Positions 8,618 to 61,762 of a stretch of 64,000 bases of DNA are shown here, one piece after another; the first letter of the stretch is position 1, and every line of letters starts with the position of its first letter. A model generated the notes under the pieces. The model saw only the letters and a program-made list of their open reading frames with translations. It was not told the origin of the DNA and ran no database searches. The position numbers and the translations under genes were made by a program. Origin of the DNA: Eledone cirrhosa (taxonomy: Eukaryota); assembly GCA_964016885.1 (NCBI GenBank), contig OZ024743.1, positions 352,780,001 to 352,844,000 on the forward strand, given 5' to 3'.

Positions 8618-10319
8618 CATCATCATCATCGTTTAATGTCCATCTTCCACGCTAGCATGGGTTTGGACAGAAATTTTCCCACTTGAGGCAAGATTGGTTG
8701 TCTTGCTCGTATAGGACTGTCTGGCGGGTTTTCTACGGCTGGATGCCCTTCCTAACACCAACCACGTTTACACTGTGGACTGGGAGGTTTTTACCATGTT
8801 ACCTACACGGCCACATTACAGCCTGGACTGTGTGTTTTTTTTTTTGTCGTGACACTTACACGACCTCATTTATTTAGGACTGGATGTTGTGGTACCAACA
8901 TAACTTTACATCGAAAGGGGTGGTGTGGCTGGGGGTGGGGGTAGTGGGACAGGGGTGTATTTTGGTAAGAGGTGACTACTGACTGTAGGTTCCGCTTTGC
9001 ACTTAGGCAAGGCAGGACTTCTGTATTACTGTGTAGCGCCAAAGATCTCGGTCCAGTGACATTGTCTTGGAGAGGTGTAAGTGTGTGAGGTCGGAATTTA
9101 TCAAGTCGTCCCAGGTTTTTCTGGGTCTGCCTACTCCATGGCTACCGTCTATTTTGATCACCCTGCACTTTTTTATACAGCTGTCATCTTTCATGCGCAT
9201 CACGTGACCATACCAACGTAGTCTTCTCTCGAGTAAACAGCATCTGATCCCTCTTATTCCTAATTTCTTACTTAGTTCATTTATGCTTTGCCGTTCACGT
9301 ATATTACTATAACACATCCAACGGAGCATGCAAGCTTCATTCCTCTCCAGTCTGCGTAGATCCTCTGCACTCAATGCCCAAGTCTCACTGCCATGTAACA
9401 TTGTTGTTCGTATGCAGGCATCATACAGCCTGCCTTTCATTTTTAGAGAGAAACCTTTAGCAGCCAATAGTGGTATAAGCTCTCTGAACTTTTTCCATCC
9501 CGTTCTGACTCTAGCTACTGTACTTTCAGAGCACCCTCCACCACTGCTGATTTTGTCACCCAGGTAACGGAAAGTGTCCACTATTTCTATAAAACCATCT
9601 GTGCAATGGAATGAGCTAGTATTCTGTGGGCACTTGCTGCTACTTATTGCACCTGAGCACCGGCCACATATAAAATCTATATTCTTAGTTAGCTTACCTG
9701 TGATCCCACTACATCTTTTATGCACCCAAACTTTGCATTTGGGACATAAAATGGAGTTTCTGCCTACTCCTTTCCTACACACTGAGCATGCCCATTTCCC
9801 AGATGGGACCAGTGCCCTATTTTCCTACCTACATACTAGAACTTTAGTCTTAGACAGGTTAATTTTAAGGCCTTTTGATTCTAGGCCATGCTTCCATGTT
9901 TGGAATTTCTTCTCTAGTTCAGCCATTGATTCAGCTATAAGCGTTAGATCATCAGCATATAGGAATTCCCATGGGCAGCCAGTCTTGAACTCCTCTGTTA
10001 TAGCCTGAAGGGCAATAATAAATAGGAAGGGGCTAAAGACGGAGCCCTGATGAACACCAACTTTTACGCTAAACTCTTCACTATATTCGTTGTTAATTCT
10101 AACCTTGCTGACTGTTTCTTTATACATGGCTTGTATAGCTCTCACAAGCCATTCATCAACACCTAGTTTTCTGAGAGCCCACCAGATAATGGGGCGTGGG
10201 ACTGTCAAAGGCTTTCTCCAAGTCAACAAAAGCTGTGTATAGGGGTTTACTTTTAGCTAGGTACTTCTCCTGTAGTTCTCGTACAATGAAAAGAGCGTCT
10301 GTGGTACTTTTACCTGACA
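8618..10319 (-). mobile_element. 5'-truncated RTE LINE, family A (RT C-terminal half, PHD-like finger, 3'UTR, (GAT)n tail)
   Basis: ORFs 10156-10419, 9825-10229 and 9003-9782 give FVDLEKAFD, GVHQGS, YADD, YLG and RLRWYGHV. Frameshift near 10200 and in-frame TAG at 9825. (CAT)n at 8618; possible GAAAT duplication at both ends. Confidence 0.95.
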
Positions 10320-10870
10320 AGAAATGGATACCTTGGATATTGTAAGCAAATATACCTCTAATATCTATGATTATTGGTCTGTTGTTTAGGGTTGACATAG
10401 GGCTTAACAATGACAACAATCAGTAAATGAATGACAAGCCTACAAGAAAGCTTCTATGCAGTCACTTAACCTGCTAGAAAGAGTCACTAAAACTATGTCT
10501 TACCACTTACACCCTACTGTCTTAAAGGAAGGGCCAATTGGATAATGCAGTACTGAATGCACTGTGCTTCAATAGAATATGGAATAGCCATAGATAGCTT
10601 GAATGCCTTTGATCATGGGTGTGGTCAGTTAGGGCTGAAACAACAGCAAATATACATGTTGTTGACTGAACCCCAGTAGCCCAGTTACTTTTGCTGTTAA
10701 TTTACTACAGTTTCCAAGATGCCTATGAATGCTTAACCTTTTCATTACCATATTTCTAATGAAATACAATATTTCAATTAATTAATGAAGAATTTTGACA
10801 AATTTACTAAAATTATATATATTATCTCATTACTAAGACAGTAACTTAACATATGGTTGTTATATAAAAT

Positions 10871-17705: not shown

Positions 17706-20700
17706 CAGTGGCGTAACTAGCTTGGGGGCAAATTCGATTTAAAGGGGGCCCACCAATTCCATATGCTCATTTCCATCGGCTGCAAGGAAATATGTTCATA
17801 CACGCATATAGAATAGATAATAATTTATAATAGAGTAGACAGCATCATAGATTATAGAGTTTGCATGTTCCGTGAAAATTTTATTAACTGCGAAGACAGT
17901 TGTCTATCCTCAGAAAAAAGACAACATCCAATAAAACTAGTTTTGCAATCGATTATTCACCAACAAAAATTCGTATGTACAACAAATCGTCCATCTAAAA
18001 CTTTACTTTCACATTCGAGCACACCACTTGTTCTACAGTTCTAATTTGCGATGTTTTACTTTAGAAAATTGTTCAATCACGATGCTGAAGTCAATTTTTT
18101 CAGCCAGTTCTCGCTTGATGTACATCATTGCCAGAGCATTCAACCGCTCTTCACTCATGGTACTACGCAAATAATTCTTTATCAGTTTGAGCCTGCTGAA
18201 GGTTCGCTCAGCCTGCGTCGAGCTAACCGGAATAGTTATGAACATTTTGTATAGGCTCTATCTAAGTCATTAGAATCATAAACAGAAAGATCTCAGAACT
18301 CGATATGTATTTATCTAAACACACTTCCTTGTAAAAATCTTTGAATGATAAATACTCGCCGGAAATAGTGTCATTTTCGATGTCACCCTCGTAGAATTTC
18401 ACAAGATTATCGATTTTCTCTCTATTGCATGTGTCGTCGTCGAAGTGCGCCGGTATCAAGCACGAAAAATCCTTCACTAGATCGTGCAAGTCGGCAAAAC
18501 GTTCGTTAAAGCTACTAATGATTCTATCTAAGATAGTAAAATAAACGTCCCATTTAAAATGCTGACACATCGTCTCATGAGGTTCGTCACTGGCATTTTC
18601 GTCATGAAAACGCTTCTTTTTTCTTTTCCGTTTTTCTGTTGTAAACTCTGGTTCAACTTGACATTGCTCGGCGAGATTTTTAGCGTCTGATAATGTTTGG
18701 TCAAAATATTCACTTGAGCGGATGTCTTCAATTTCTTTTACTACATTTTTAATCATGACGTCCACGGAATATAAGTCGATAGAGTCCTTCTGCAAATATT
18801 GTGAAACAGAATGCAGCTTTTTAAGTAAATTCTGAAAAAACTTCAACATGAAAATGAATTCAAACTTGCTCACATTTAATAGCAAACCTCTGGCCTCGGC
18901 TAATACTTTCGGAGCAGTGTTGTGAACATCCCCACTTATTATCCTCTCTAGTGCACTTATTACTGCCGGTAAGTTAATGGTAGCCTCTACGGCCTGAATG
19001 TGACTAAACCAGCGCGTATCTGAGAGTCTTTTTAATGTTAATACTGTTGAAGTCAATAGTTTTTCTTGTTCTTCTTCGAGGATTTTCAGCCTTGGCAAGC
19101 TTGATGTTAAGAAAACATAAAGGCTCTCCAATATACCAAAAAATAATTTACCATCCACTGACGATTGGCTAGCATCGATTAACACCAGGTTCAGGTTATG
19201 AGCGCAACAATGGACGTAAACAGCTTTCGAAGAGCATCCCTCTTTAACTCTAGCTTGAAGCCCAGAAATATGGCCGGACATATTCGACGCTCCGTCGTAA
19301 GCTTGTCCCCTAATATATTGAGCATCCAAGGATAGATCCTGGAAAAGAACTTTCACAAGAGTATCGTAAAATGATTCAGTGGCTGCTGATTCTAGTTCAC
19401 AAAACGACAGGAAATGCTCCTGTGCGTGGCCACTTTTCAATACATATCGCAGTGACACAGAGCATTGATCCTGATGCGAAATGTCTATTGTGGAATCGAT
19501 GATGACTGAATAGTATTTTGCCGCTTTCACTTCCGTGATTATTTGTTGAGTACATTCGTTTGCCAGGCATTCTATGAATTCGTTTTGTAATTTTGGACTT
19601 AAGTACATAGGCTGTCTTTTAGTGCGCCCAGGCGAGAATAAATGGCTTTCCAAGATCGTATCATACTTGGCCATCAATTGCAACAATTCAATAAAGTTTC
19701 CTTCATTTTCTGATTTGGCGCCAAGTCCAGCATATTCCCTGTGACCTCTAAAGGCCAGGCCTTGTTTTGCTAGAAATAACGTACAATCAAGCAATTGCCT
19801 CAATATCTGGCGATTTCGTTCAATTCGCTTCTTCTCTTCATGGATGAGGTTATTGATCACTGTTTTATCTGCGTCCAAACGATATTTTGTCATGAAGTAT
19901 TGCTTTTGTGCATTGATGTGAATGGCACATTTCTCATGCTTGGCAATTTTTTCCGATTCCTTTTTTGAAGTTTGCCATTCCATACTCTGGATTACCCCAA
20001 GTCTTCGAGTAAGATTTGGCATTTTTATCAGCAAACAGCCAACAACAAAAGCAATATAGTCTGTTAGATTCAGGAGAGTATACTAACCAGCGTCGGTCAA
20101 CTTTATGGATTCCAGCACACTTTCTCTTGTACCAACTGATGTTGAATTTTCTGTGGTTCGAGTCGAGAGGGAAATCAGCAAAAATTATCTTTCAATCCTG
20201 GCTGACAAGGGCCAATGGCCATGAGGGCGCGAATTAGAGGTGTCGTCAATGGTCTGTCCTCGAAATGTTTTGGGTCGCTTGGATACTTCTCTTGTAAATT
20301 CAACATGCATTCTACTGGCTCATACTCTGGGATTTGTTTTGCCAATGTAGTTTCCTCTGAATTATGTTCATTTTCAGATTCCGATACAGCCATTTTTCCC
20401 TCCATTGAGTTCGGATCCCCAGTTGGAACTACATCTTCAGTGACTACGACGGTTGTTGGACCTGAGGCATCTTCGGCGTCAGGTTCTCGCGACTCCCCAG
20501 TGCTTTTCTGTTTCTCCAGTTCATTTGACCAGACCGACTCGCCGGAAATTCCGGCAGTTACGTTGCTTTGGGATGCATCACTACTTGTTGACGAAGACTG
20601 TTGACTTTTCAGAAATCTTGTGATTAGATGACATTTCTTTGCAGATTCTTCCGTGGCAGCTTGTCTAGCTTCTCTCCTCTTTGTTGCTCCAGTTTTGTAA

Positions 20701-24079: not shown

Positions 24080-27000
24080 AACAACTCAACACCCCTCCCT
24101 CCCGCCCCAACGCACCACCATTATTATTACGTGGACCAATCATAAGCCAGAGGCCTATACTATCGCTTACCTGGTCGCCTTCGATATGTAGGATGGAAGG
24201 ACTACGGAGTTCCGGAGAGTTGAAGAGAGAAAAATCTGGACGCTCAGCGACAATGCCAAAGATAAAGACAAACACACCTCGTGGACGAGAATGCGAGCAT
24301 TCCTCTTTGTTTCGGCCGCGGATGGCCAACATAACCCCATCTCCCACCGCTCCCACCCTCCAAACGCAATCCAAAACTTCAGAGTTGGTACCTTGAATGT
24401 AGGCACCTTAAAGGGTCGCTCTAACGAGGTTGTAGAAATGCTTGAACGTAAGGAGCTCGATGTTTGTTGTATTCAAGAGACCAGGTGGAGGGGTGGATCT
24501 GCTAGATTCATTGTGGGTAGAAAACGATGCTATAAGCTTTTCTGGGTGGGAAATGACAATGGGCTGGGTGGAGTAGGAATCATGGTAGCAGAAAAGTGGG
24601 CAGATAAGATAATAGACGTAAATAGAGTGAACGACAGAATAATTAAAATAAGACTTGTCCTCAATAGAACTACGGTGACATAATATCTGCGTACACACTC
24701 CAATCCGGACTGCCCGGCACTATAAAAGACAGATTCTATGAGACACTGATGCTCACTACCTCCCAAATAACCGACAGTGACTATATAATTATTGCAGGCG
24801 ACCTAAATGGTCACGTTGGACAACATTGTGACGGCTACAACGAAATCCATGGAGGCTATGGGTTTGGTACTAGAAATGAGGAAGGCTCCAGAATCCTGGA
24901 ATTCTGTGACGTAAATAACCTAACTATCTGCAACACTAACTTCAAAAAACGAGACAATCACCTGATCACCTATAGATCAGGGGAACATACCAGCCAGGTA
25001 GATTATATCCTTACCAGAAGACGTGACAGAGTGACTGTTGTAAACACTAAATCCCTCCCCCATGAAGAATGCACCTCCCAACATAGACTGATAATTAGCG
25101 ACCTAATAGTCAGGACGAGACGTACTAGACAACAGAAGAGGACTATCCTCAGGAGAAAAATATGGAAGCTAAAGGACCCCACAGCCAAAAATAAATTTCA
25201 AAGCATATTACTTGATGCTTTCGACAGTAAGGAAGAGCATTTAGAGTCGGACAATATAGAGGGGCAGTGGGAATTTCTGAAAGCAAACCTGCTGATGGCG
25301 ACAGACGAAGTCTGTGGCTGGAGCAGGCCTGTTGGCAGGAGGAGAGTAACATGGTGGTGGAACAGTAAGGTGGAGGGGTCAATTAAGGCCAAAAAGCAGG
25401 CTTGGAAAGTATGGCGGGATGGGGGAAGTAGAGAAGACTATCAAGTGGCCAGGAGGGAAGCTAGGAGACAAGTGTACTTCGCAAGAAGGGAAGCAGAGGA
25501 AAGAAAGTTCAAGCATGTTCTACAACGCGAGGACCAAAAACGTGAGGTGTTCAGGATTGCTAGGCAATGTGTCAAGGAAAACAGTGATATTGTCGGGGAG
25601 AAGTGTGTACTTAATGATGACGGCGTACTTGCCATCACCGACGCTGATAAGAAGGTAGCTTGGAAGTGTCACTATGAAAGGCTACTAAATGAGGAGAATA
25701 AATGGGAGAAAGACAGTCTCCCTCACATCGACCCAATAGAGGGACGAGCAGTGTTAGTCGAGGGTAGTATAATAAGTAAGGCAATCAAAGATATGAAGAC
25801 GGGTAAGGTGGCTGGGCCTTCGGAAATAGTTGCCGAGATGCTGAAGGCATCTGGTACGGTGGGACACACCATGGTCACCCGGATAGTCAACCAAGTCATA
25901 CAGAATGGGGCTGTTCCGAAGGACTGGCGTAGCAGCATCATCATTAACTGTTATAAGGGTAAAGGAGATGCCCTAGATAGGAGTAACTATAGAGGCATTA
26001 AATTAATCGACCAGGTCATGAAGGTCACGGAAAAAGTAATAGCGCAACTAATCAGAGAGCGAATTGATCTAGATGAAATGCAGTTCGGGTTTGTGTCAGG
26101 CAAAAGTACCACAGACGCTCTTTTCATTGTACGACAACTACAGGAGAAGTACCTAGCTAAAAGTAAACCCCTATACCTAGCTTTCGTCGACTTGGAGAAA
26201 GCTTTCGACAGAGTCCCCCGTTCCATTATCTGGTGGGCTCTTAGAAAACTAGGTGTTGATGAATGGCTTGTGAGAGCTATACAAGCCATGTATAAAGAAA
26301 CAGTCAGCAAGGTTAGAATTAACAACGAATATAGTGAAGAGTTTAGTGTAAAAGTTGGTGTTCATCAGGGCTCTTTTCTTAGCCCCCTACTATTTATTAT
26401 TGCCCTCCAGGCTATAACAGAGGAGTTCAAGACTGGCTGCCCATGGGAACTCCTATATGCTGATGATCTAACGCTTATAGCTGAATCAATGGCTGAACTA
26501 GAGAAGAAATTCCAAACATGGAAGCATGGCCTAGAATCAAAAGGCCTTAAAATTAACCTGGCTAAGACTAAAGTTCTAGTATGTAGGTAGGAAAATAGGG
26601 CACTGGTCCCATCTGGGAAATGGGCATGCTCAGTGTGTAGGAAAGGAGTAGGCAGAAACTCCATTTTATGTCCCAAATGCAAAGTTTGGGTGCATAAAAG
26701 ATGTAGTGGGATCACAGGTAAGCTAACTAAGAATATAGATTTTATATGTGGCCGGTGCTCAGGTGCAATAAGTAGCAGCAAGTGCCCACAGAATACTAGC
26801 TCTTTCAACTGCGCAGAGGGTTCTATAGAAATAGTGGACAGCTTCCGTTACCTGGGTGACAAAATCAGCAGTGGGGGAGGGTGCTCTGAAAGTACAGTAG
26901 CTAGAGTCAGAACTGGGTGGAAAAAGTTCAGTGAGCTCATACCACTATTAGCCACTAAAGGGTTCTCCCTAAAAATGAAAGGCAGGTTGTACGATGCCTG

Positions 27001-27803
27001 CATACGAACAGCAATGTTGCATGGCAGTGAGACCTGGGCATTGTGTGCAGAGGATATACGCAGACTAGAGACAAACGGAGCTTGCATGCTCCGCTGGATG
27101 TGTAATAGTAATATACGTGAACAGCAAAGCATAAACGAACTAAGGAAAAAATTAGAAATAAGAGGGATCAGATGTTGTTTACTCGAGAGAAGGCTACGTT
27201 GGTATGGTCACGTGATGCGCATGAAGGACGATAGCTGTATAACAAAGTGCAGGGCAATAAAGATAGACGGTAGCCACGGAATAGGCAGACCCAGAAAATC
27301 CTGGGACGAGCTGATAAATTCCGACCTCACACACTTACACCTCTCCAAGACAATGTCACTGGACCGAGACCTTTGGCGGTACTCAGTAATTGAGAAGACC
27401 CGCCTTACCTAAATACAAAGTAAAACCTACTACAGTCAGTAGGCATCTCTAACAAAACACACCCCCGTCCCACCACCGCCACCTCATCCACACCGCCCCT
27501 TTCAATGTAAAGTTATGTTGGTGCCACAACATCCAGGCCGAAACAAATGAGATCGTGTAGGTGTCACGTCAAAAAAACACACAGTTCACGCTGTAATGTG
27601 GACGTGTAGGCAACACGGTAAAAACCTCCCAGCCCCACACTGTAAATGTGGTTGGTGTTAGGAAGGGCATCCAGCTGTAGAAAACCCGCCAGATAGTCCT
27701 ATGCGAGCAAGATAACCAGTCTTGCCTCAAGTGGGAAAACCCTCCGTCCAAACCCATGCAAGCGTGGAACACGGACGTTAAACGATGATGATGATGATGA
27801 TGA
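24080..27803 (+). mobile_element. Near-full-length RTE LINE, family A
   Basis: Endonuclease (TLNV, CIQETRW, AGDLNGHVG, SQVDY, QH), RT (QFGF, FVDLEKAFD, QGS, YADD), PHD-like finger and (GAT)n tail into (AT)n. The 5' end is uncertain and may extend to the (TA)n at ~23640. Confidence 0.95.
24291..27412 (+). pseudogene. RTE-A endonuclease-RT ORF with a frameshift (~24681) and an in-frame TAG (26588)
   Basis: ORFs 24291-24683, 24749-26590 and 26633-27412 are colinear with the intact 1022-aa ORF. Confidence 0.93.
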
Positions 27804-34741: not shown

Positions 34742-36310
34742 CAACATATTACGCAACAGGAAGAATTCATACACACCATGTCGAAAACATAATCTATTAT
34801 TCACTCAACACTAATATTCGTAATACAATTGACTGATGAACTAGGGAACAAAATCGAAGATATTAACTATTATAGATACAACATATGTATCTTTATATAA
34901 TTTTCTTTCTTATAAATTTTTTTTTTTTAAACATACACAGAAAAAGAAATCGGCATTGGAAAGGACTATAAACGAGAGGGGAACGGGGGAGCAAGGACTA
35001 CTAGACAAAGCAAGAAAGAAATGGGGATGAGGAGATAGTGACAGACTGTATGTTATTTGTAAGACTAATATATATTTCAAATGACTAATTATTACTGACT
35101 TTTTTTAGAATTCACAAATCCAGAGTATTGTGGGGCAGCTGCTGCATAACTGAACAGGAGATGTGTTTTCAAAATATGGTTATAGTATAGAATAGTAAAT
35201 TGTGCATGGCACACACATACACACACAAATTACACATGAACAAATTTCAGATAGTCTTGAAATTTGAACCAATAAGTAATATCGTAGTTGATATCTTAGA
35301 CAATGGCAGGTCAAAAATGACCACAATATGACACTTTGTCAGTGCTTAACAAACATTATGCAATAATGGCTTCACATTAAATCACGAGAATTGTATAATG
35401 ATGTGAGACAAATAGAATATTTTGGCTTCACAATTTCTAAACAGGGAGTTAAACTCATGAAAACTTTAAATGTTTTGAGGAATACTCAGTTTTCTTGGTT
35501 GCTTTATACCGCATTTAACCACTAAGACAGATACACTGCTATCCATCGACAGAGCTTTAACTCCTAATGAAGTCATAGAGCTGCCATCTTGGGCTTTTAA
35601 TTTTAAACCTAGCAGAGCCCACCACTCTTCAGATCTGAACACAGCTGATTTCTTACAGAAAATAAGGAGATAGAGAGAGAGAAAGTAAGAAAGTAAGAAA
35701 GAGGTATAGAAGAATAGACTGGTATTTGACTGGTACTTCATTAAACTTTTAAAAAAAGTTAATTTAGATGGGATTTGGATTCAGAGCGCAGAGAGCCAGA
35801 ACAAATACCATATTCTATTAAACATTCTAATGACTCTGCCAATTTTCTGCCTATATAGTACAGAAACTCACAAAAGAGGAACAGTGACAGACAAGAGAAA
35901 ATATTCCAGGAATTAAAACAACACATATCACATATATACCATCCCATATGTAAAGCAACTATGCTGATGCCAGTCCTGTTGAATTGAGCACCATATTGAT
36001 ACAATATTATTTCCTACACATCTTCAAAAATCAGACATTATTCGCCCTTTTGTTAAGCTTTTTCTAATGAAAGATAGACACATCCTACTATTTTCAAATA
36101 ATTTTTAAAATAATCAAGAATTTGAAAGGATTTAGTAATAAAACTAACTTTTTTGTTAATTTACAATACAAAGCTGTTTATTTAAGTGTTTATATTTATC
36201 TAAAAACATTCCACCAAAGGATTAATAGTAGTTGATGGTCACTGAAAAAGATGAACAGTTTTTCATGTGTGGAATTTTTTGTGCCCAAATCTCAAAATTA
36301 TAATTTTCAG

Positions 36311-36534
36311 TTAAGCCCTTTTGATATCAAACCACCGAAATGGGTCCTGTTTCTGATACAAAACTGTTTATTTGAAAATGCTTTTAAAAACCCTTCCATC
36401 ATAATCTAAGTTATGTTCCAAACACCATCTTAATAATGAAAAGGTTAGTCATAATACTGAATTGCTACAAATTCTTGATTATTTCCAAAATGATTTGAAA
36501 AGCATAGGCAGTGTATTTTATTAGAAATATGGTA
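36311..36534. mobile_element. TTAA MITE family 2, left part; right TIR displaced to 41511-41523
   Basis: Starts ttaagcccttttgatatcaaaccacc and breaks at ttagaaatatggta. The family end read from 10734 (reverse complement) is ttagaaatatggtaatgaaaaggttaa, and atgaaagggttaa follows the RTE tail. Confidence 0.8.
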
Positions 36535-36645
36535 TATGAGTTTTCCAAGAGATGGCAACATGAATGGACCTGTTATTTTTCTCTAAAAACCTTTTATCCG
36601 ATTCTGCCCCGCCCGTCCCTTCAATCTTTCTAATTTCTCATTCTT

Positions 36646-36681
36646 TCTTCTGATGAAGGACTAGCGTCTGAAACGTTAAGA
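36646..36681 (+). ncRNA. Minimal type I hammerhead ribozyme (Penelope/retrozyme-like)
   Basis: TCTT-CTGATGA-A-GGAC(TAGC)GTCT-GAA-ACGT-T-AAGA: stem I TCTT/AAGA, intact core, stem II, palindromic ACGT stem III; predicted cleavage after GUU (36677). Confidence 0.75.
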
Positions 36682-37012
36682 CCCTTTTCCTGCTATTTCA
36701 AGCATTAAGTTAATCATATTCCTTCCATATACTTTACCGATTGTGTTGTTATTTCTGTTTACCTTTTACATACATATGTAGTAGATAATAGGGAGCAGCG
36801 GCTGTTAGGGCAAGACGTGTTTTCTTGGGCTCTGCTAGAGTCAGCAGCAACACACAACCACGTGTTGCTACACACACACAAGAGGAAAGAGAAAATTTAA
36901 AATTTATGAGACCAATAGAGATATGTACATTTATATATTTATATCTAGATATTGCTATTATCATTTACAGTCCCTCTGTGTTTAATGTATGTTCATTAGT
37001 ATATGTGTTGTT

Positions 37013-37302
37013 ATTTCTGCTTGCATTTTGCATATATCTATATATATGCTTGCGTGGACCCCTCTCAAAAATTCGTTGGATTTTCTAATTGGATACCCTA
37101 ACACTGGATACCAACACTGAATACACCTGAACTTCTACCAGGAAATCTTTCGTTGTCATTTCTGCTTGCATTTTACATATATAGATATATATATCAATGG
37201 TTGCGTGGACCCCTCTTAAAGATTCGTTGGATTTTCTAATTGGATACCCCGAAACTGGATACCAATTACTGAATACACCTGAACTTCTACCAGGAAATCT
37301 TT
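37013..37302 (+). repeat. Tandem dimer of a ~140-145-bp unit
   Basis: atttctgcttgcattt...ttgcgtggacccctct...gaacttctaccaggaaatctttc at 37013-37151 and 37158-37302. Confidence 0.9.
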
Positions 37303-37631
37303 CATATCAGTGAAAATTTTCTTTTCTTTGCTTCGTATATATATATTATATATACTTGTCCGCCATTGCAAAAGGCCATCAATTCAAAATTTTGAAGAGA
37401 GAGGAAAAGAGAGAAGTGATCTATGAACTTGTAACATCTCACTGACCCCCCCCCCCCCCGTCACCACACTAACAATAACGCCTACACTCGCTCCCCACCA
37501 TCACCACATTACTCTAAGGTCGCTGTCCTGTCCCCTGTTGACATACTGCTGACTCTCTTTTGATGTATGTATGTGTATATACATATGTGTATGTGTGTGT
37601 ATATGTATATCTCAGTGGATGCGGCCAGATT

Positions 37632-37930
37632 TCAACACAGCAACAACTACAACAACAACAGCAGCAACACCAACAACAACAACAACAGCAACAACACCAT
37701 CGTCTGTGTTGAATGTGTGTGTATGTATTTGTATATATGCGACAGCAATAACAGCATCAACACCATTGTCTGCAGCAACAGCAGCAGTGAAATGAAGGAC
37801 AACAACAACAGTAACAACTACAATAACAACTGCAGCACCAACAACTGCCACCACCATCACTGACCATCCACCACCACCACGCTGATACCATCCACCACCA
37901 CCACACTGACACCATCCACCACCGCCATTA
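37632..37930 (+). repeat. Degenerate (CAA/CAG)n and (CCA)n low-complexity tract
   Basis: Seen directly. Confidence 0.85.
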
Positions 37931-38219
37931 CCAGCGTAAACAAACAATTATTATTGTTATTGTTATTATATACAAGCCGAACTGGACTGGGAAAGGTCAA
38001 CAGTTGACATGATAGTGATTTTGACGATTTTGATTTTGATTTTGATTTTGTATCAGTACTGTCGGTAATATATGTATATATATATATGTTTGTGAGTGGT
38101 GTGCGTGATTGTATGCATGAATGAGTGTTGGTATGTGTGGTTGTGGTTTGTATGCATGAGTATTAGTGTGTGAGTCGTGTCAATAAGTTTCCTTTTTTTT
38201 TTTTTTTTTTTTTTTTTTA

Positions 38220-41200
38220 ATGACCATGCTGTAAAATGGAGGGGTAGAGAGGGCCCTTGAGTCTAGTAAGACATCCTCTCTAGTGCTGGTGGCACAAATA
38301 AAAGCACCCAGTCCATGCTGTAAAGTGGCGCTGGTGTTAGGAAGGGCATCCAACCAGTGTATCAATGCCAAAAAGCTTATCAGCACAGCAACAAAACAGC
38401 ATAGAAAAATATGAAGACGTCGCATCTCAGAGTTGCAACACTTAATGTTGGCACTCTCAGAGGTAGGTCTGCTGAAATAGCGGAGATGCTGGAGAGAAGG
38501 CAGGTGGATGTGTGCTGCGTGCAAGAGGTGAGATGGAGGGGTGCCTCTGCGAGACTAGTCGTAGGCAAGCGTCTTAGCTATAAGCTATTCTGGGTAGGTA
38601 AGGATGATGGGTTAGGGGGAGTAGGCATTTTCCTGGCTGAGAAATGGATCAATAAGACAATAGAGGTAGTTCGAGTTAGTAATCGAATAATTAAGCTTAG
38701 ATTAGTTGTAGGTAGGAGACTACTGACAATCATCTCGGTCTATGCTCCCCAAGCAGGCCTAGGCAAAGATGAGAAAGACTGCTTTTATGAGCAACTTTTG
38801 CAAACAACCACAATGACAGAGGACGGAGACATCGTTATGCTAGCAGGAGACTTCAATGGTCATGTTGGACAGCTCCAGGATGGTTACACTGGGGTACATG
38901 GTGGGCACGGTTACGGTTCAAGAAATGAAGAAGGAGTGAGACTTCTTGAATTTTGTGATGCAAGTACATTGACTATTTGCAACACAAACTTCCAGAAACC
39001 TGCCAATCACCTAATAACCTACAAATCTGGTGAGCACATAAGCCAGATTGACTTCCTGCTAGTTAGGCAGCGGGACAGGCAGATAGTGTCTAATACCAAG
39101 GCATACCCTGGGGAAGAATGTACCCCACAGCATAGGTTAGTTGTTAGTGATATCTCAGTAAGCAAGAGATGGAATGAGACATATAGGAAGGTGTGGAGAA
39201 GAAAGGTCTGGAAGCTAAAAGACCTTTCACTAAAATTCAAATTTAGGAAAGCCCTTCAAGATGTATATGACGAAAAAGAAGACGATTTAGAGACGTATGA
39301 CATAGATAATAACTGGAAGTTCTTACGTGACAACTTGCTGAAGGCTACTGATGAAACCTGTGGCTGGAGCAGAGCTCCAACCAGACAGAGAGTGACCTGG
39401 TGGTGGAACAGCAGTGTAGATAAGGCTATTAGAGACAAAAGACTAGCATGGAAGGCTTGGAATAAGGGTGGGAGTAGGGAAGAATATACAGCCACTAAGA
39501 GAGAAGCTAGACGTCAGGTGTACTTAGCACGCAGGGAGGCAGAGAGTAGGAGGTTTGCCAATGTTCTGCGACGGGAAGATCAGAGGCGTGCGGTGTTCCA
39601 CATTGCAAGGCAGTGTGTCGATGCAAATCAGGATGTTGTTGGTGATAAATGTGTCCGGGATGATGCCGGTGTACTTAGTGTCACGAATGACCAGAAAAAG
39701 GAGGCCTGGAAATGTCATTATGAGAGACTGATGAATGTGGAGAACGAATGGGAGAGAGAGAAATTACCCTTGGTAGATCCGACAGAGGGACCAGCTATTG
39801 AGATTGACGAATATAGGGTCCAAGAGGCGATTAGGGAAATGAAAAATGGTAAGGCGGCCGGACCATTGGGAATAGTTGCTGAGATGCTGAAGGCATCAGG
39901 GGACGTAGGCACTAAACTGGTTGCACGCATAATCAATCAGGCTATATATGGTGGTGTCATACCCAAAGACTGGTGCAGCAGTATTCTCATAAATTGCTAC
40001 AAAGGTAAAGGGGATGCTTTGGAGAGGAGCAATTATAGGGGTATAAAACTGATAGATCAGGTTATGAAAGTGGCAGAAAGGATTCTAGCACAACTAATTA
40101 GAGAAAGGGTCAAACTAGATGAGATGCAGTTTGGTTTTGTGCCTGGGAAGAGTACAACAGATGCCCTCTTCTTGGTGAGACAAATGCAAGAGAGGTTCTT
40201 AGAGAAGAATAAGCCACTATACTTAGCCTTTGTTGACCTAGAGAAGGCCTTTGATAGGGTACCCCGATCTGTCATCTGGTGGTCCCTAAGGAAGCTGGGT
40301 GTTGAGGAATGGCTTGTAAGGACAGTGCAAACTTTGTACAGAGGTACTCTCAGTAAAGTCAGGGTAGGAATGGAGTTTAGTGAGGAATTCCAGATACAAG
40401 TAGGAGTACATCAGGGTTCGGTCCTCAGCCCGCTCTTGTTCATTATAGTCCTCCAAGCCATAACAGAGGAGTTTAAGACTGGCTGTCCATGGGAACTTCT
40501 CTATGCTGACGATCTGGCTCTTATGGCAGAATCAGTAGAGGAGCTAGAGAATAAATTCCGGCTATGGAAACAGCAGTTGGAAGCAAGAGGACTGAGAGTA
40601 AATCTAGCTAAGACAAAAGTGTTGATGAGTAGAAAAGAGGACAAAACCCTGATTCCGTCAGGGAAATGGCCATGTTCGATATGCAGAAAAGGAACTGGCA
40701 TAAATTCTATAAAATGCACACAATGTAGGTCCTGGGTACACAAGAGATGTAGCGGGATAGCAGGCAAACTAACAGGTAGGGAGAAATATGTATGCAGTAG
40801 ATGTACAGGGAAATTAGACAGTAGAAGTCGCACTGATAGACACATTTTTCAAATGCGAGAGGGCGCTATAGAAGTGGTGGATAGCTTCCTGTACCTAGGA
40901 GATCAGATTAGCATGGGAGGAGGGTGTTCCGAGGCCATAGTATCTAGAATAAGGACGGGTTGGAAGAAGTTTAGGGAGCTGCTTCCTCTGTTGACGAAGA
41001 AGGGTTTCTCCCTGCGTACGAAAGGCCGGTTGTATGATGCCTGTGTGAGGAGCGCGATGCTGCATGGTAGTGAGACATGGGCAGCTACCGCAGAAGATAT
41101 GCGACGGCTGGAGAGAAATGAGGCAAGCATGCTCCGTTGGATGTGCAGTGTAAATGTGCGTGAACGACCCAGCATAAATGTGTTGAGAGAGAAACTGTGT

Positions 41201-41504
41201 CTGAGAGGGATAGAATGTAGTGTACGGGAGAGGAGACTGAGGTGGTATGGACATGTGATGCGCATGGAGGATGACCGATGGGTGAAGAAGTGCCAGGAAA
41301 TGCCAGTTGAAGGAAGACGTGGTAGAGGTAGACCACGAAAAACATGGGCGGAGGTGGTGAGAACAGACCTCAGATCATTGAAGCTCACGGTGGAGATGAC
41401 GAGGGACCGTGACGAGTGGAGAGATGCTGTGCTGAATAAGACCCGTCCCACCCTTGCAAGCAGGGAAAAGCGGACGTAAAATGATGATGATGATGATGAT
41501 GATG
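38220..41504 (+). mobile_element. Full-length, potentially active RTE (BovB-like) LINE, family B
   Basis: 5'UTR with ggtgttaggaagggcatcc, uninterrupted ORF and (ATG)n tail. The insertion may start at 36535. Confidence 0.96.
38411..41479 (+). CDS. RTE LINE ORF: AP-like endonuclease + reverse transcriptase + PHD-like finger, 1022 aa
   Basis: TLNV, VQEVRW, YAPQ, GDFNGHVG, QIDF, QH; QFGF, FVDLEKAFD, QGS, YADD, YLG; C4HC3 motif; no stop codons. Confidence 0.96.
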   Translation: MKTSHLRVATLNVGTLRGRSAEIAEMLERRQVDVCCVQEVRWRGASARLVVGKRLSYKLFWVGKDDGLGGVGIFLAEKWINKTIEVVRVSNRIIKLRLVVGRRLLTIISVYAPQAGLGKDEKDCFYEQLLQTTTMTEDGDIVMLAGDFNGHVGQLQDGYTGVHGGHGYGSRNEEGVRLLEFCDASTLTICNTNFQKPANHLITYKSGEHISQIDFLLVRQRDRQIVSNTKAYPGEECTPQHRLVVSDISVSKRWNETYRKVWRRKVWKLKDLSLKFKFRKALQDVYDEKEDDLETYDIDNNWKFLRDNLLKATDETCGWSRAPTRQRVTWWWNSSVDKAIRDKRLAWKAWNKGGSREEYTATKREARRQVYLARREAESRRFANVLRREDQRRAVFHIARQCVDANQDVVGDKCVRDDAGVLSVTNDQKKEAWKCHYERLMNVENEWEREKLPLVDPTEGPAIEIDEYRVQEAIREMKNGKAAGPLGIVAEMLKASGDVGTKLVARIINQAIYGGVIPKDWCSSILINCYKGKGDALERSNYRGIKLIDQVMKVAERILAQLIRERVKLDEMQFGFVPGKSTTDALFLVRQMQERFLEKNKPLYLAFVDLEKAFDRVPRSVIWWSLRKLGVEEWLVRTVQTLYRGTLSKVRVGMEFSEEFQIQVGVHQGSVLSPLLFIIVLQAITEEFKTGCPWELLYADDLALMAESVEELENKFRLWKQQLEARGLRVNLAKTKVLMSRKEDKTLIPSGKWPCSICRKGTGINSIKCTQCRSWVHKRCSGIAGKLTGREKYVCSRCTGKLDSRSRTDRHIFQMREGAIEVVDSFLYLGDQISMGGGCSEAIVSRIRTGWKKFRELLPLLTKKGFSLRTKGRLYDACVRSAMLHGSETWAATAEDMRRLERNEASMLRWMCSVNVRERPSINVLREKLCLRGIECSVRERRLRWYGHVMRMEDDRWVKKCQEMPVEGRRGRGRPRKTWAEVVRTDLRSLKLTVEMTRDRDEWRDAVLNKTRPTLASREKRT

Positions 41505-41799
41505 ATGGTAATGAAAGGGTTAACATAATTTAGTGAAAAGAGAAAGCTTTTGCTTATTAACATTATTTAATGAAATGAGAATGCCATTATCAAGAATACT
41601 TCACAGGGGAACTTGATTGATGTCCTACAATTGCCTTCTACAAAGCCATCCAAAGTCCAGCAGCATGTCAACTAATAGCAACAATAAAGTGTATTGATGC
41701 AGATGAATATATCAATCATGTAATTGTAAATACAATTCCTAAAGCCATGATTTTATTTAATTTGTTAAAACGTCTAAAGCTACTCAAGCAATAGTGGAA

Positions 41800-42600
41800 G
41801 CACTGAGAATCAGAGAATAGAATATATTTCACTTCAAAAGAAGAGTCTACAGAGAAAAATTGAGTATTGTTCTAGAAGGAAAGCAAACCACCATTCCTTT
41901 TATATTAAGAATAAAAATACTAGACATTACCCATGGGTGTCATATGGGGGGGAAAAAAGCAATTTCTAAGTATGAAAGTATGGTGGCTCAAAATCGACAA
42001 ACATATAGTAAAAAAAATTAGGAATTGTTTAGTATGTATATCGCTTTAAACATCTGAGCCATTGAAACCTTTGATAATGTCTACAATGCATGTAGGAGGA
42101 AATACACATAGGTTTCAAAAGTCCCTTACCCAGCAGAGAATCCTTAGTTATTATAAATACAGCATCATGTTGGCTGGAGGTATTACTCATGAAATTAACT
42201 GGAACTCATAATCTGAACAGTTAGATGAAGTTCCTTTTAAAATTAAAGGATGATAGTGGTTAGGGTTAGTTCCAAAATGAATTAGTTCTGACAAAGGCCC
42301 ACAGCTTATAAGCTATGTGTTTAAAGATTGTTTAGAAGATTGGATATACAACATGAAAGATTTACATGTTCCATCCTCAAATAAATGCTCTAGTAAAAAG
42401 ATTCAAGAGAAACTATTGTCGATGTAATCAAAGCATCAATTCAAGAAGACAAACAGTAAAAGAGAGAAATTTGGAAGTTTTTATTACTCTACAGGAATGC
42501 TCAGTTATTCATCAACAAAGATAGCACCTCCTATTTCTGCTATAAACTCAACGTCCTGTACTACATGAAACCACATTTGCAAGACATTCTTGAAAAATAC
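41800..42600 (+). pseudogene. Highly degenerate Gypsy-type LTR retrotransposon integrase relic
   Basis: Fragments read THGCHMG, WWLKID, ISSDKGPQ, FHPQINALVKRF and FLLLYRNA, matching the order of H..H.G, VSDNGPQF, YHPQSNG.VERF and FLL.YR. Confidence 0.65.
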
Positions 42601-58208: not shown

Positions 58209-61200
58209 CATCATCAACGTTTAACGTCCGTGTTCCACGCTTGCATGGGTTTGGAGGGGGGTTTTCCCACTTGAGGCAAGAGTGATTATCTTGCTCGCAT
58301 AGGACTATCTGGCGGGTTTTCTACAGCTGGATGCCCTTCCTAACACCAACCAGTGTGGGGCTGGGAGGTTTTTACCGTGTTGCCTACACGGCCACATTAC
58401 AGCGTGAACTGTGTATTTTTTGACGTGACACCTACACGATCTCATTTGTTTCGGCCTGGATGTTGTGGCACCAATATAACTTTACATTGAAAGGGGCGGT
58501 GGGGATGGGGTGGGGGTGGGGTACGGGGGTGTATTTTGTTAGAGATGCCTACTGACTGTAGTAGGTTTTACTTTGTATTTAGGTAAGGCGGGTCTTCTCT
58601 ATTACTGAGTACCGCCAACGGTCTCGGTTCAGTGACATTGTCTTGGTGAGGTGTAAGTGTGTGAGGTTGAAATTTATCAGCTCGTCCCAGGTTTTTCTGG
58701 GTCTGCCTATTCCGTGGCTACCGTCTATCTTTATTGCCCTGCACTTTGTTATACAGCTATCGTCCTTCATGCGCATCACGTGACCATACCAACGTAGCCT
58801 TCTCTCGAGTAAACAACATCTGATCCCTCTTATTTCTAATTTTTTCCTTAGTTCGTTTATGCTTTGCCGTTCACGTATATTACTATTACACATCCAGCGG
58901 AGCATGCAAGCTTCGTTTCTCTCTAGTCTGCGTATATCCTCTGCACACAATGCCCAGGTCTCACTGCCATGCAACATTGCTGTTCGTATGCAGGCATCGT
59001 ACAACCTGCCTTTCATTTTTAGGGAGAACCCTTTAGCGGCTAATAGTGGTATAAGCTCTCTGAACTTTTTCCATCCAGTTCTGACTCTAGCTACTGTACT
59101 TTCAGAGCACCCTCCCCCACTGCTGATTTTGTCACCCAGGTAACGGAAGCTGTCCACTATTTCTATAGAACCCTCTGCGCAGTTGAAAGAGCTAGTATTT
59201 TGTGGGCACTTGCTGCTACTTATTGCACCAGAGCACCGGCCACATGTAAAATCTATGTTCTTAGTTAGCTTACCTGTGATCCCACTACATCTTTTATGCA
59301 CCCATACTTTGCATTTGGGACACAAAATGGAGTTTCTACCTACGCCTTTCCTACACACTGAGCATGGCCACTTCCCGGAAGGGACCGCCGCCTTATTTGC
59401 TTTCTTACAAACTAGAACTTTAGTCTTAGCCAGGTTAATTTTAAGGCCTTTTGATTCTAGGCCGTGCTTCCATGTTTGGAATTTCTTCTCTAGCTCGGCC
59501 ATTGATTCAGCTATGAGTGTTAGGTCATCTGCGTATAGGAGTTCCCATGGGCAACCGGTCTTGAACTCCTCTGTTATAGCCTGAAGGGCAATAATAAATA
59601 GTAGGGAGCTGAGAACAGAGCCCTGATGGACGCCAACTTTTACGCTAAACTCTTCACTATATTCGTTGTTAATTCTAACCTTGCTGACTGTTTCTTTATA
59701 CATGGCTTGTATAGCTCTCACAAGCCATTCGTCAACACCTAGTTTTCTAAGAGCCCACCAGATAATGGAACGGGGGACTCTGTCGAAGGCTTTCTCCAAG
59801 TCGACAAAAGCTAAGTATAGGGGTTTACTTTTAGCTAGGTACTTCTCCTGTAGTTGTCGTACAATGAAAAGAGCGTCTGTGGTACTTTTGCCTGACACAA
59901 ACCCGAACTGCATTTCATCTAGATCAATTCTCTCTCTGATTAGTTGCGCTATTACTTTTTCCGTGACCTTCATGACCTGGTCGATTAATTTAATGCCTCT
60001 ATAGTAACTCCTATCTAGTGCATCTCCTTTACCTTTATAACAGTTAACGATGATGCTGCTACGCCAGTCCTTCAGAACAACCCCATTCTGTACGACTTGG
60101 TTAACTATCCGGGTGACCATGGTGTGTCCCACCGTACCAGATGCCTTCAGCATCTCGGCAACTATTTCTGAAGGCCCAGCCGCCTTACCTGTCTTCATAT
60201 CTTTGATTGCCTTACTTATTATACTACCCTCGACTAACACTGCTGGTCCCTCTATTGGGTCGATGTGGGGGAGACTGTCTTTCTCCCATTTATTCTCCTC
60301 ATTTAGTAGCCTTTCATAGTGACACTTCCAAGCTACCTTCTTATCAGTGTCGGTGATGGCAAGTACGCCGTCATCATTAAGTACACACTTCTCGCCGACA
60401 ATATCACGGTTTTCCTTGACACATTGCCTAGCAATCCTGAACACCTCACGTTTTTGGTCCTCACGTTGTAGAACATGCTTGAACTTTCTTTCCTCTGCTT
60501 CCCTTCTTGCGAAGTACACTTGTCTCCTAGCTTCCCTCCTGGCCACTTGATAGTCTTCTCTGCTTCCCCCATCCCGCCATACTTTCCAAGCCTGCTTTTT
60601 GGCCTTAATTGACCCCTCCACCTTACTGTTCCACCACCATGTTACTCTCCTCCTGCCTACAGGCCTGCTCCAGCCACAGACTTCGTCTGCCGCCATCAGC
60701 AAGTTTGCTTTCAGGAATTCCTACTGCTCCTCTATATTGTACGACTCTAATTGCTCTTCCTTACTGTCGAAAGCATCAAGTAGTATACTTTTGAATTTAT
60801 TTCTGGCTGTGGGGTCCTTTAGCTTCCATATTTTTCTCCTGAGGATAGTCCTCTTCTGTTGTCTAGTACATCTCGTCCTGACTATTAGGTCGCTAATTAT
60901 CAGTCTATGTTGGGAGGTGCATTCTTCATGGGGGAGGGATTTAGTGTTTACAACAGACACTCTGTCACGTCTTCTGGTAAGGATATAATCTACCTGGCTT
61001 GTGTGTTCCCCCGATCTATAGGTGATCAGGTGATTGTCACGTTTTTTGAAGTTAGTGTTACAGATAGTTAGGTTATTTGCGTCACAGAATTCCAAGATTC
61101 TGGAGCCTTCCTCATTTCTAGTACCAAACCCATAGCCTCCATGGATTTCGTTGTAGCCGTCACAATGTTGTCCAACGTGACCATTTAGGTCGCCTGCAAT

Positions 61201-61762
61201 AATTATATAGTCACTGTCGGTTATTTGGGAGGTAGTGAGCATCAGTGTCTCATAGAATCTGTCTTTTATAGTGCCGGGCAGTCCGGATTGGAGTGTGTAC
61301 GCAGATATTATGTCACCGTAGTTCTATTGAGGACAAGTCTTATTTTAATTATTCTGTCGTTCACTCTATTTACGTCTATTATCTTATCTGCCCACTTTTC
61401 TGCTACCATGATTCCTACTCCACCCAGCCCATTGTCATTTCCTGCCCAGAAAAGCTTATAGCATCGTTTTTTACCCACAATGAATCTAGCAGACCCACCC
61501 CTCCACCTGGTCTCTTGAATACAACAAACATCGACCTCCTTACGTTCAAGCATTTCTACAACCTCGTTAGAGCGACCCTTTAAGGTGCCTACATTCAAGG
61601 TACCAACTCTGAAGTTTTGGATTGCGTTTGGAGGGTGGAAGCGGTGGGGAGCGGGGGGAGATGGGTTATGTTAGCCATCCGCGGCCGAAACAAAGAGGAA
61701 TGCTCGCATTCTCGTCCACGAGGTGAATTTGTCTTTATCTTTGGCATTGTCGCTGAGCGTCC
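58209..61762 (-). mobile_element. Near-full-length RTE family A (frameshift at 61308, TAG at 60721)
   Basis: ORFs 61308-61598, 60721-61242 and 58579-60702 are nearly identical to the 24-27.8 kb copy; (CAT)n tail at 58209. Confidence 0.95.

Follow-up and report, generated by a model that had tools for sequence, protein, structure and literature searches.

A young RTE-type LINE of Eledone cirrhosa with a captured Penelope fragment at its 5' end: a candidate case of template jumping

Within a 64,000-nucleotide stretch of the Eledone cirrhosa genome (contig OZ024743.1; G000:C4:352780001-352844000 of a 3.0-Gb genome, here called the window), an intact long interspersed nuclear element (LINE) lies inside a miniature inverted-repeat transposable element (MITE), and a hammerhead ribozyme motif stands upstream of its coding region. 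The locus raises the question of how a LINE of the RTE type came by such a 5' end. The first-pass annotation, made from the letters alone, offered a 1.9-kb 5' transduction, an RTE subfamily with a hammerhead in its leader, or later nested insertions. The sequence features on which it relied (hammerhead, tandem dimer, simple-repeat tracts, poly-T and intact open reading frame (ORF)) are all where it placed them. Comparison with the rest of the genome points to another history, in which most of the leader is native to the LINE and a short piece in front of it comes from a Penelope element elsewhere. The parts of the locus are:

36311..36534, no strand assigned: left part of the TTAA-ended MITE, the target (rebuilt end compared with an intact paralogue, 31/33)
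36529..36534, + strand: left copy of the target-site duplication, ATGGTA (from the sequence)
36535..36538, + strand: outer linker TATG, not in the donor on contig C2; occurs also in the adjacent target
36539..36780, + strand: captured 3' end of a Penelope pseudo-long terminal repeat (pseudo-LTR) with a (TACA/TA) tail, 100% identical to G000:C2:304051919-304052160 (- strand)
36646..36681, + strand: minimal type I hammerhead (motif scan, family comparison, and structure read by hand against PMC4209133)
36781..36790, + strand: inner linker GTAGATAATA, unique in the genome and ending in ATA, the usual prefix of the family
36791..38410, + strand: native 1.62-kb 5' untranslated region (5'UTR) of the LINE family (genome search, 37 leaders compared)
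37007..37303, + strand: tandem dimer of about 145 bp, native to the 5'UTR (two units in 34/37 other leaders, one in 3)
37633..37927, + strand: (CAA)n and (CCA)n-rich tracts, native to the 5'UTR (in 37/37 other leaders)
38193..38218, + strand: poly-T (T26), native to the 5'UTR (9-36 T in 37/37 other leaders)
38411..41479, + strand: single intact ORF of 1022 aa with APE endonuclease, reverse transcriptase (RT) and PHD-like finger (ORF and domain search)
41481..41507, + strand: (ATG)9 tail, one base after the stop codon at 41477-41479 (repeat scan)
41505..41510, + strand: right copy of the duplication, ATGGTA, overlapping the last tail unit (from the sequence)
41511..41523, no strand assigned: MITE end resumed, reaching TTAA (end-motif and paralogue match)

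A single unit of about 5 kb inside the MITE had been proposed at the outset, and the target sequence bears this out. The MITE starts with TTAA at 36311 and finishes with it at 41520-41523, and deleting 36535-41504 in silico gives an end that agrees at 31 of 33 bases with the intact copy at 10733-10765 (- strand) of the window. With up to 3 mismatches allowed, the 27-nt end motif is found twice in the window and never in 100 shuffles. ATGGTA, which flanks the insert, has a frequency in the window of 2.7e-4 per base, and the second copy sits exactly at the spot that the paralogue predicts, so its presence there is not due to chance. The two copies of the 6-bp duplication thus stand as first described, but its size does not: its first three bases, ATG, could also be the last unit of the (ATG)n tail, and the true duplication is therefore 3-6 bp. 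Target-site duplications of RTE-clade LINEs are given as 6-12 bp (PMC2887409), or with a peak at 10-12 bp (PMC4245944). At another copy of this LINE (L109), a site rebuilt from paralogues has a duplication of 4 bp, which argues that short duplications are normal in the family; those of most other copies are hidden in microsatellites. Read from left to right, the insert consists of the duplication, TATG, the donor piece, GTAGATAATA, the LINE, its tail and the duplication again.

The extent of the LINE itself was defined by genome searches. One with 36535-37000 (40 of 5140 candidates scored) returned two classes of match, nearly all of them starting at about 36767-36790, and the likeness of LINE copies to the window stops sharply just before GGGAGCAGC at 36791. 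A second, with 36790-36990 (40 of 274 candidates scored), found largely the same loci, and 39 distinct non-self loci were retrieved. In 37 of these, the same 5' end continues through the ORF to the (ATG)n tail, mostly at 95-99% identity; the exceptions are L093, which stops at 38056, and L128, which is rearranged. The leader has a median length of 1615 nt (1259-1742) in the 37 measurable copies. The two units of the dimer (37007-37151 and 37152-37303, 88% alike), the (CAA)n tract (37633-37696), the CCA-rich repeat (37848-37927) and the poly-T all belong to this common leader, contrary to the idea of nested insertions. A long transduction likewise gives way: about 1.62 kb of the supposed cargo is the family's own 5'UTR, and only 242 bp plus linkers are foreign. 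No same-strand ORF of at least 100 aa is present in the leader. Introns there were considered and rejected, in that five deletions in four copies end at microhomologies rather than at GT-AG. At the native 5' end, the fold z is about -0.5, and two crude motif scans for hepatitis delta virus (HDV)-like and twister ribozymes were empty, although a divergent ribozyme may escape them.

By sequence comparison the LINE family, about 4.7 kb at full length, is very young. In a tree built without L093 and L128 (no 3' end), terminal branches have a median of 0.0015, and the window copy, on a branch of 0.0013, falls in a supported clade of nine members. A same-strand ORF of at least 1000 aa is kept at 18 of the 39 loci. 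Several copies in the subclade of L111-L113, L115, L118 and L123 have a longer open frame, 1045-1046 aa from stop to stop, compared with 1024 in the window.

The foreign piece, in contrast to the leader, can be traced to one place. A search with 36539-36766 (best 40 of 4839 candidates scored, window included) gave one copy on C2 at 100% and 38 others at 91-94%, and the full piece, 36539-36780, agrees with C2:304051919-304052160 (-) at 242 of 242 bases. At 11 columns where the window departs from the majority of 28 aligned copies, C2 departs with it in every case, and three of these variants are found in none of the 28. The identity extends into the tail, which is peculiar to this copy: no other aligned copy has it in the same form. 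The C2 locus has about 30 further bases of the family upstream, with a 15-bp repeat flanking both sides, and for these reasons it is the original insertion and donor rather than a recipient. It is an old copy, truncated to the last ~270 bp of a pseudo-LTR and 6-9% from its relatives. The absence of any difference over 242 bases is as expected from the age of the LINE (P about 0.5-0.7 for an end branch of 0.0013) but not from the spread of the Penelope family (P 4e-8). A scan of 30 kb around the donor found no LINE copy at or above 88% identity; the foreign piece is all that matches the window at 97% or above.

The assignment of the donor family to Penelope comes from its neighbours. A match to a Penelope ORF with a Pfam-confirmed GIY-YIG domain lies within 1.5 kb at 3 of 30 donor-family loci, upstream and in sense with the hammerhead strand at L048 and inverted at L046 and L039, which identifies the family as a Penelope pseudo-LTR; a Pfam search of three short Penelope fragments gave nothing. 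As judged by these comparisons, the foreign 242 bp is the 3' end of a Penelope pseudo-LTR from a single C2 locus, and the source of the captured 5' sequence is pinned to the base.

The hammerhead motif belongs to this captured piece. Read by hand, it has all the parts of a minimal type I motif: a CUGANGA and GAAA core (CTGATGA at 36650-36656), stem II, a short helix I (TCTT/AAGA, 4 bp), a palindromic helix III (ACGT), an NUH triplet, and an unpaired base before stem II. The predicted cut falls after 36677 (GUU). The minimal hammerheads described for Penelope pseudo-LTRs have the same 4-bp helix I, the unpaired base before stem II and a palindromic helix III that needs a dimer (Cervera and De la Pena 2014, PMC4209133), and they occur mostly as single motifs in truncated copies (PMC4209133). 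The Penelope type named in the first-pass annotation is thus upheld, the pseudo-LTR family having GIY-YIG neighbours. Unlike the published motifs, the one in the window sits 5' of a LINE and has a weakened pair closing stem II (PMC4209133): this pair is G-U in the window and at C2, whereas 16 of the 25 copies that keep the core have G-C (30 copies compared, 5 without the core pattern). Rfam gave no hammerhead over the whole window at the gathering threshold, and at E<=10 over 36500-38450 it gave no ribozyme family and nine weak unrelated matches; free folding of the motif as monomer or dimer did not yield the active fold. Since the captured piece begins about 140 nt 5' of the predicted cut, the 5' end of the insert was not set by the ribozyme, and the hammerhead is likely a passenger.

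How the piece was joined to the LINE is suggested by the junctions of the family at large. ATA precedes the start of the LINE core at 31 of 38 loci. DNA rich in AT dinucleotides is found in the 20 bases upstream of 32 of 38 full-length junctions (the window included in the 38) and downstream of 22 of 38, as against 1.6% of window positions. The target in the window has no such upstream DNA, unlike these 32 of 38 junctions; the breakpoint in the C2 donor is a (TA)n tract. The 38 upstream flanks have no junction-adjacent sequence in common. A G, conceivably cap-derived, stands before the (AT)n prefix at 15 of 39 junctions, and control offsets gave 3-11 of 38. The 5'-inverted copy L128 (G000:C3:198150011) has two LINE arms that meet at ATATA, which in that position can derive from neither the target nor the interior of the element; the prefix therefore either comes with the RNA or is an addition of the RT. 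At L124 (G000:C6:40911725-40911917), 183 bp of the element's own 5'UTR are repeated (182/183 identical) in front of ATATA and the LINE start; the repeat stops at an internal TA tract, and its sequence shows what is apparently a templated 5' addition by a jump back onto its own 5'UTR.

Other unusual junctions were seen in the same family. At L128/L147/L148, an inverted arm (36789-37504) is joined via ATATA to 40341-tail with the middle deleted, an arrangement like that of twin priming in a non-L1 LINE. In L102, L106 and L121, which group in the tree (86/94), the prefix TTTA occurs together with an internal variant, and the sequences suggest that these few upstream bases were inherited from the source copy. 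At L095/L149 (C3:610528) and L107/L150 (C25:4835698), the full-length 5' end is preceded at 200-420 bp by another copy, 5'-truncated, inverted and with a tail of its own, both copies of each pair being in the same micro- or minisatellite array; these pairs possibly record two priming events at one site.

Taken with the C2 match, the most economical reading of the locus, held with modest confidence, is a template jump. In this reading the (ATG)n tail would have primed at the ATG of the MITE, and reverse transcription would have proceeded to the 5' end of an RNA that starts with a short (AT)nA prefix. The tip of the finished cDNA, complementary to TA, would be able to pair with any (TA)n tract; it would have paired with the distant one at C2, as DNA or as an uncut C2 transcript, with a few slippage bases added. 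The cDNA end would have borrowed the C2 tract because the target offered no (TA)n upstream. After copying of 242 nt, the end would have disengaged and joined the target through TATG. A jump from the ATATA end of the LINE onto the C2 (TA)n tail within the same insertion event is somewhat favoured on this evidence. Template jumping has been proposed as a model for full-length LINE 5' junctions (PMC2912911), and extra 5' bases are reported as common in non-L1 LINEs (PMC4245944). The pattern of a template switch is present at this locus, in that the foreign piece and the LINE share one duplication and the donor is intact elsewhere without the LINE, a pattern that is necessary and not sufficient.

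Several observations weigh against the jump. A source LINE could have lain at C2 on another haplotype, one assembly having been examined, and the linker bases parse in several ways. Templated insertions of L1 in tumours are described as mostly local, made from templates shorter than 250 bp that lie no further than 15 bp from the insertion site (bioRxiv 2024.08.27.596794). A unique, near-identical donor for the 5' flank was found for none of five other copies (L109, L118, L119, L123, L101); by sequence, then, capture is not the family's default. The support comes from the assembly sequence. Among the matches listed when contigs of four sequencing runs from two samples were compared with 36000-42000, none bridges either junction, the tail probably being among skipped repeats; a 1099-bp contig (runs X1-X3) that starts at the point expected for the branching of an empty allele (first 31-mer ending 41524) is no evidence of one.

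The strongest competitor, plausible and rated clearly below the jump, is a short 5' transduction, in which the C2 Penelope copy, on another haplotype, once had a source LINE in its (TA)n tail and a read-through transcript carried along the 242-nt flank. The family favours TA-rich sites, of which the C2 breakpoint is one, and it is young enough, at a median end branch of 0.0015, for insertion polymorphism; the piece stands before a full-length LINE in Penelope sense orientation, an arrangement shared with L1 chimeras whose sources are missing (PMC13174262). The transduction needs an unseen allele, however, the assembly having no LINE at C2. Genome-wide, GTAGATAATA followed by the LINE start occurs once, so that no sibling carries the linker, and the 38 copies have no upstream flank in common. 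A host read-through transcript would probably also have been needed, the C2 copy being only the last ~270 bp of a pseudo-LTR.

Two independent insertions at the same spot, with the Penelope piece arriving alone or through break repair and the LINE before or after it, are improbable. ATATG at 36534-36538 and 36774-36778 could be read as a second small duplication, GTA at 36781-36783 in the inner linker equals the end of the duplication, and Penelope copies end in TA tracts of the kind that the LINE favours. Yet both events would have to be equally recent (0/242 differences) and to strike the same few bases, the ATATG at 36774 belongs to the donor's own tail, and the donor is old, truncated and divergent from its relatives. 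A chimera of C2 and C4 created in assembly is less credible still: it would account for perfect identity over 242 bp across two contigs, but TATG and GTAGATAATA are in neither parent, and the duplication that restores the MITE brackets the whole unit. Least credible is an RTE subfamily whose leader hammerhead works to process its 5' end. Ribozymes do exist at RTE 5' ends, since Perere-3, an RTE element, is reported to have twister variants (PMC8501958); the first-pass statement that RTE ribozymes are HDV-like is to that extent incomplete. In this assembly, the subfamily is refuted at the level of the family, the motif being present in none of the 37 other leaders. Among the 40 candidates scored, the window alone unites the hammerhead piece with the LINE. 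The start of the insert upstream of the predicted cut and the G-U pair in stem II speak against it as well, and the idea of a ribozyme in this RTE is not borne out.

A wider form of the template-jump reading is that the LINE RT routinely passes the ATATA end of its RNA by jumping to free template ends, including those of hammerhead-cut Penelope RNAs, so that the LINE and Penelope classes would recombine repeatedly in this genome. This is doubtful, and two further loci bear on it. One is L124, with its apparent jump back onto its own 5'UTR. At the other, L115/L167 (G000:C12:25453789 and upstream), a full-length LINE lies directly behind a young Penelope element with a GIY-YIG ORF and an inverted arm upstream, many copies of which are 100% identical. 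The junction reads GTC, ATATA, LINE start, and the Penelope sequence ends 0-2 nt from the predicted cut of a minimal hammerhead of U3-A8 type. Exact matches with a non-T continuation numbered 17; among the 15 examined, L115 alone truly ends at that predicted cut. One reading of the junction is that the cDNA jumped to an RNA end left by the ribozyme. An equally good one is the loss of about 150 bp of target up to an AT microhomology, and the inverted arm, whose end is normal, favours a Penelope insertion that came earlier and independently.

The coding part of the element is that of a LINE without ORF1. The single ORF, counted as 1022 aa from the first ATG, has 1586 homologues, among which the layout of endonuclease, RT and PHD is common in the 120 listed, with a best identity of 61%; the exact protein is absent from the protein cluster collection. 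The very short, simple-repeat 3'UTR is present in the window LINE and at 37 of the 39 other loci. A single APE and RT ORF, no ORF1 and a simple-repeat 3' end fit an RTE-type LINE. The label itself was taken over from the first-pass annotation and presumably holds, in agreement with the N-terminal motifs; the homology matches were to unnamed relatives.

Relatives of the element are found nearby and in another sample. Older RT-PHD LINE copies with broken frames, about 67-69% identical to the young element, lie in the window at 24379-27329 (+), 58678-61612 (-) and 9110-10314 (-). The end of the leader (38288-38356) and the 3' end (41442-41503) match many short dispersed copies in the window, which suggests that these are derivatives resembling short interspersed elements and having both ends in common with the LINE. 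Contigs of run X4 (organism B) match parts of the LINE at 99-100%, with 2 differences over 39594-39858 and none over 40532-40776, and the run holds only 0.09 of the words of 35600-36800; the LINE matches may reflect close kinship or horizontal transfer. Elsewhere in the window, a 606-aa open frame at 18262-20082 (-) contains DUF4371, a domain of hAT-type transposases.

Among known RTE elements, HmRTE-e01 (PMC2887409) and RTE-2_OV (PMC9115989) share, by their descriptions, the single APE and RT ORF and the microsatellite 3' end, and RTE-2_OV also has a zinc finger. Their ORFs, of 990 and 1109 aa respectively, bracket that of the window LINE, whereas its 1.62-kb 5'UTR compares with 276 bp in HmRTE-e01 and about 600 nt in RTE-2_OV. 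Priming of RTE elements has been linked to the 3' microsatellite (PMC6007223), to which the ATG tail unit at this target corresponds. In Octopus vulgaris, both RTE and Penelope families have been described as active in the recent past (PMC13282606). The present family lends itself to work on the mechanics of 5' junctions, since it is young, partial to (TA)n sites and equipped with a structured leader of unusual length.

The locus itself is a new and well-resolved example of a LINE 5' chimera, a kind already known from other such elements, and likely a one-off. For chimeras between RTE and Penelope elements, no report was found in the literature searched, with subscription journals outside its coverage. 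The 5' chimeras and transductions of L1, including a class with missing sources (Law and Burns 2026, PMC13174262), are similar in having one duplication around a foreign 5' piece and a near full-length LINE, in sense orientation and with no source found. They differ in that the LINE here is not an L1, the foreign piece is the decayed end of a Penelope pseudo-LTR from one locus, and the join lies at a (TA)n tract via extra bases rather than at a splice site (PMC13174262). Short templated or untemplated 5' bases, with templates of less than 250 bp, are likewise features of LINE junctions already described (PMC4245944, PMC2912911, bioRxiv 2024.08.27.596794), although the templates in those accounts are mostly flanking DNA and the one here is on another chromosome-scale contig. 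A further parallel is SolRTE of Nicotiana, where RTE-clade LINEs gain new 5' ends and template switching or RNA fusion has been proposed (bioRxiv 2022.11.04.512097). In SolRTE the switched ends founded subfamilies, whereas the window holds a single copy without descendants that has kept its native 5'UTR; it offers a clean, datable case of a non-L1 LINE picking up foreign 5' sequence, and such captures are the proposed raw material for 5'-end switching of LINE families.

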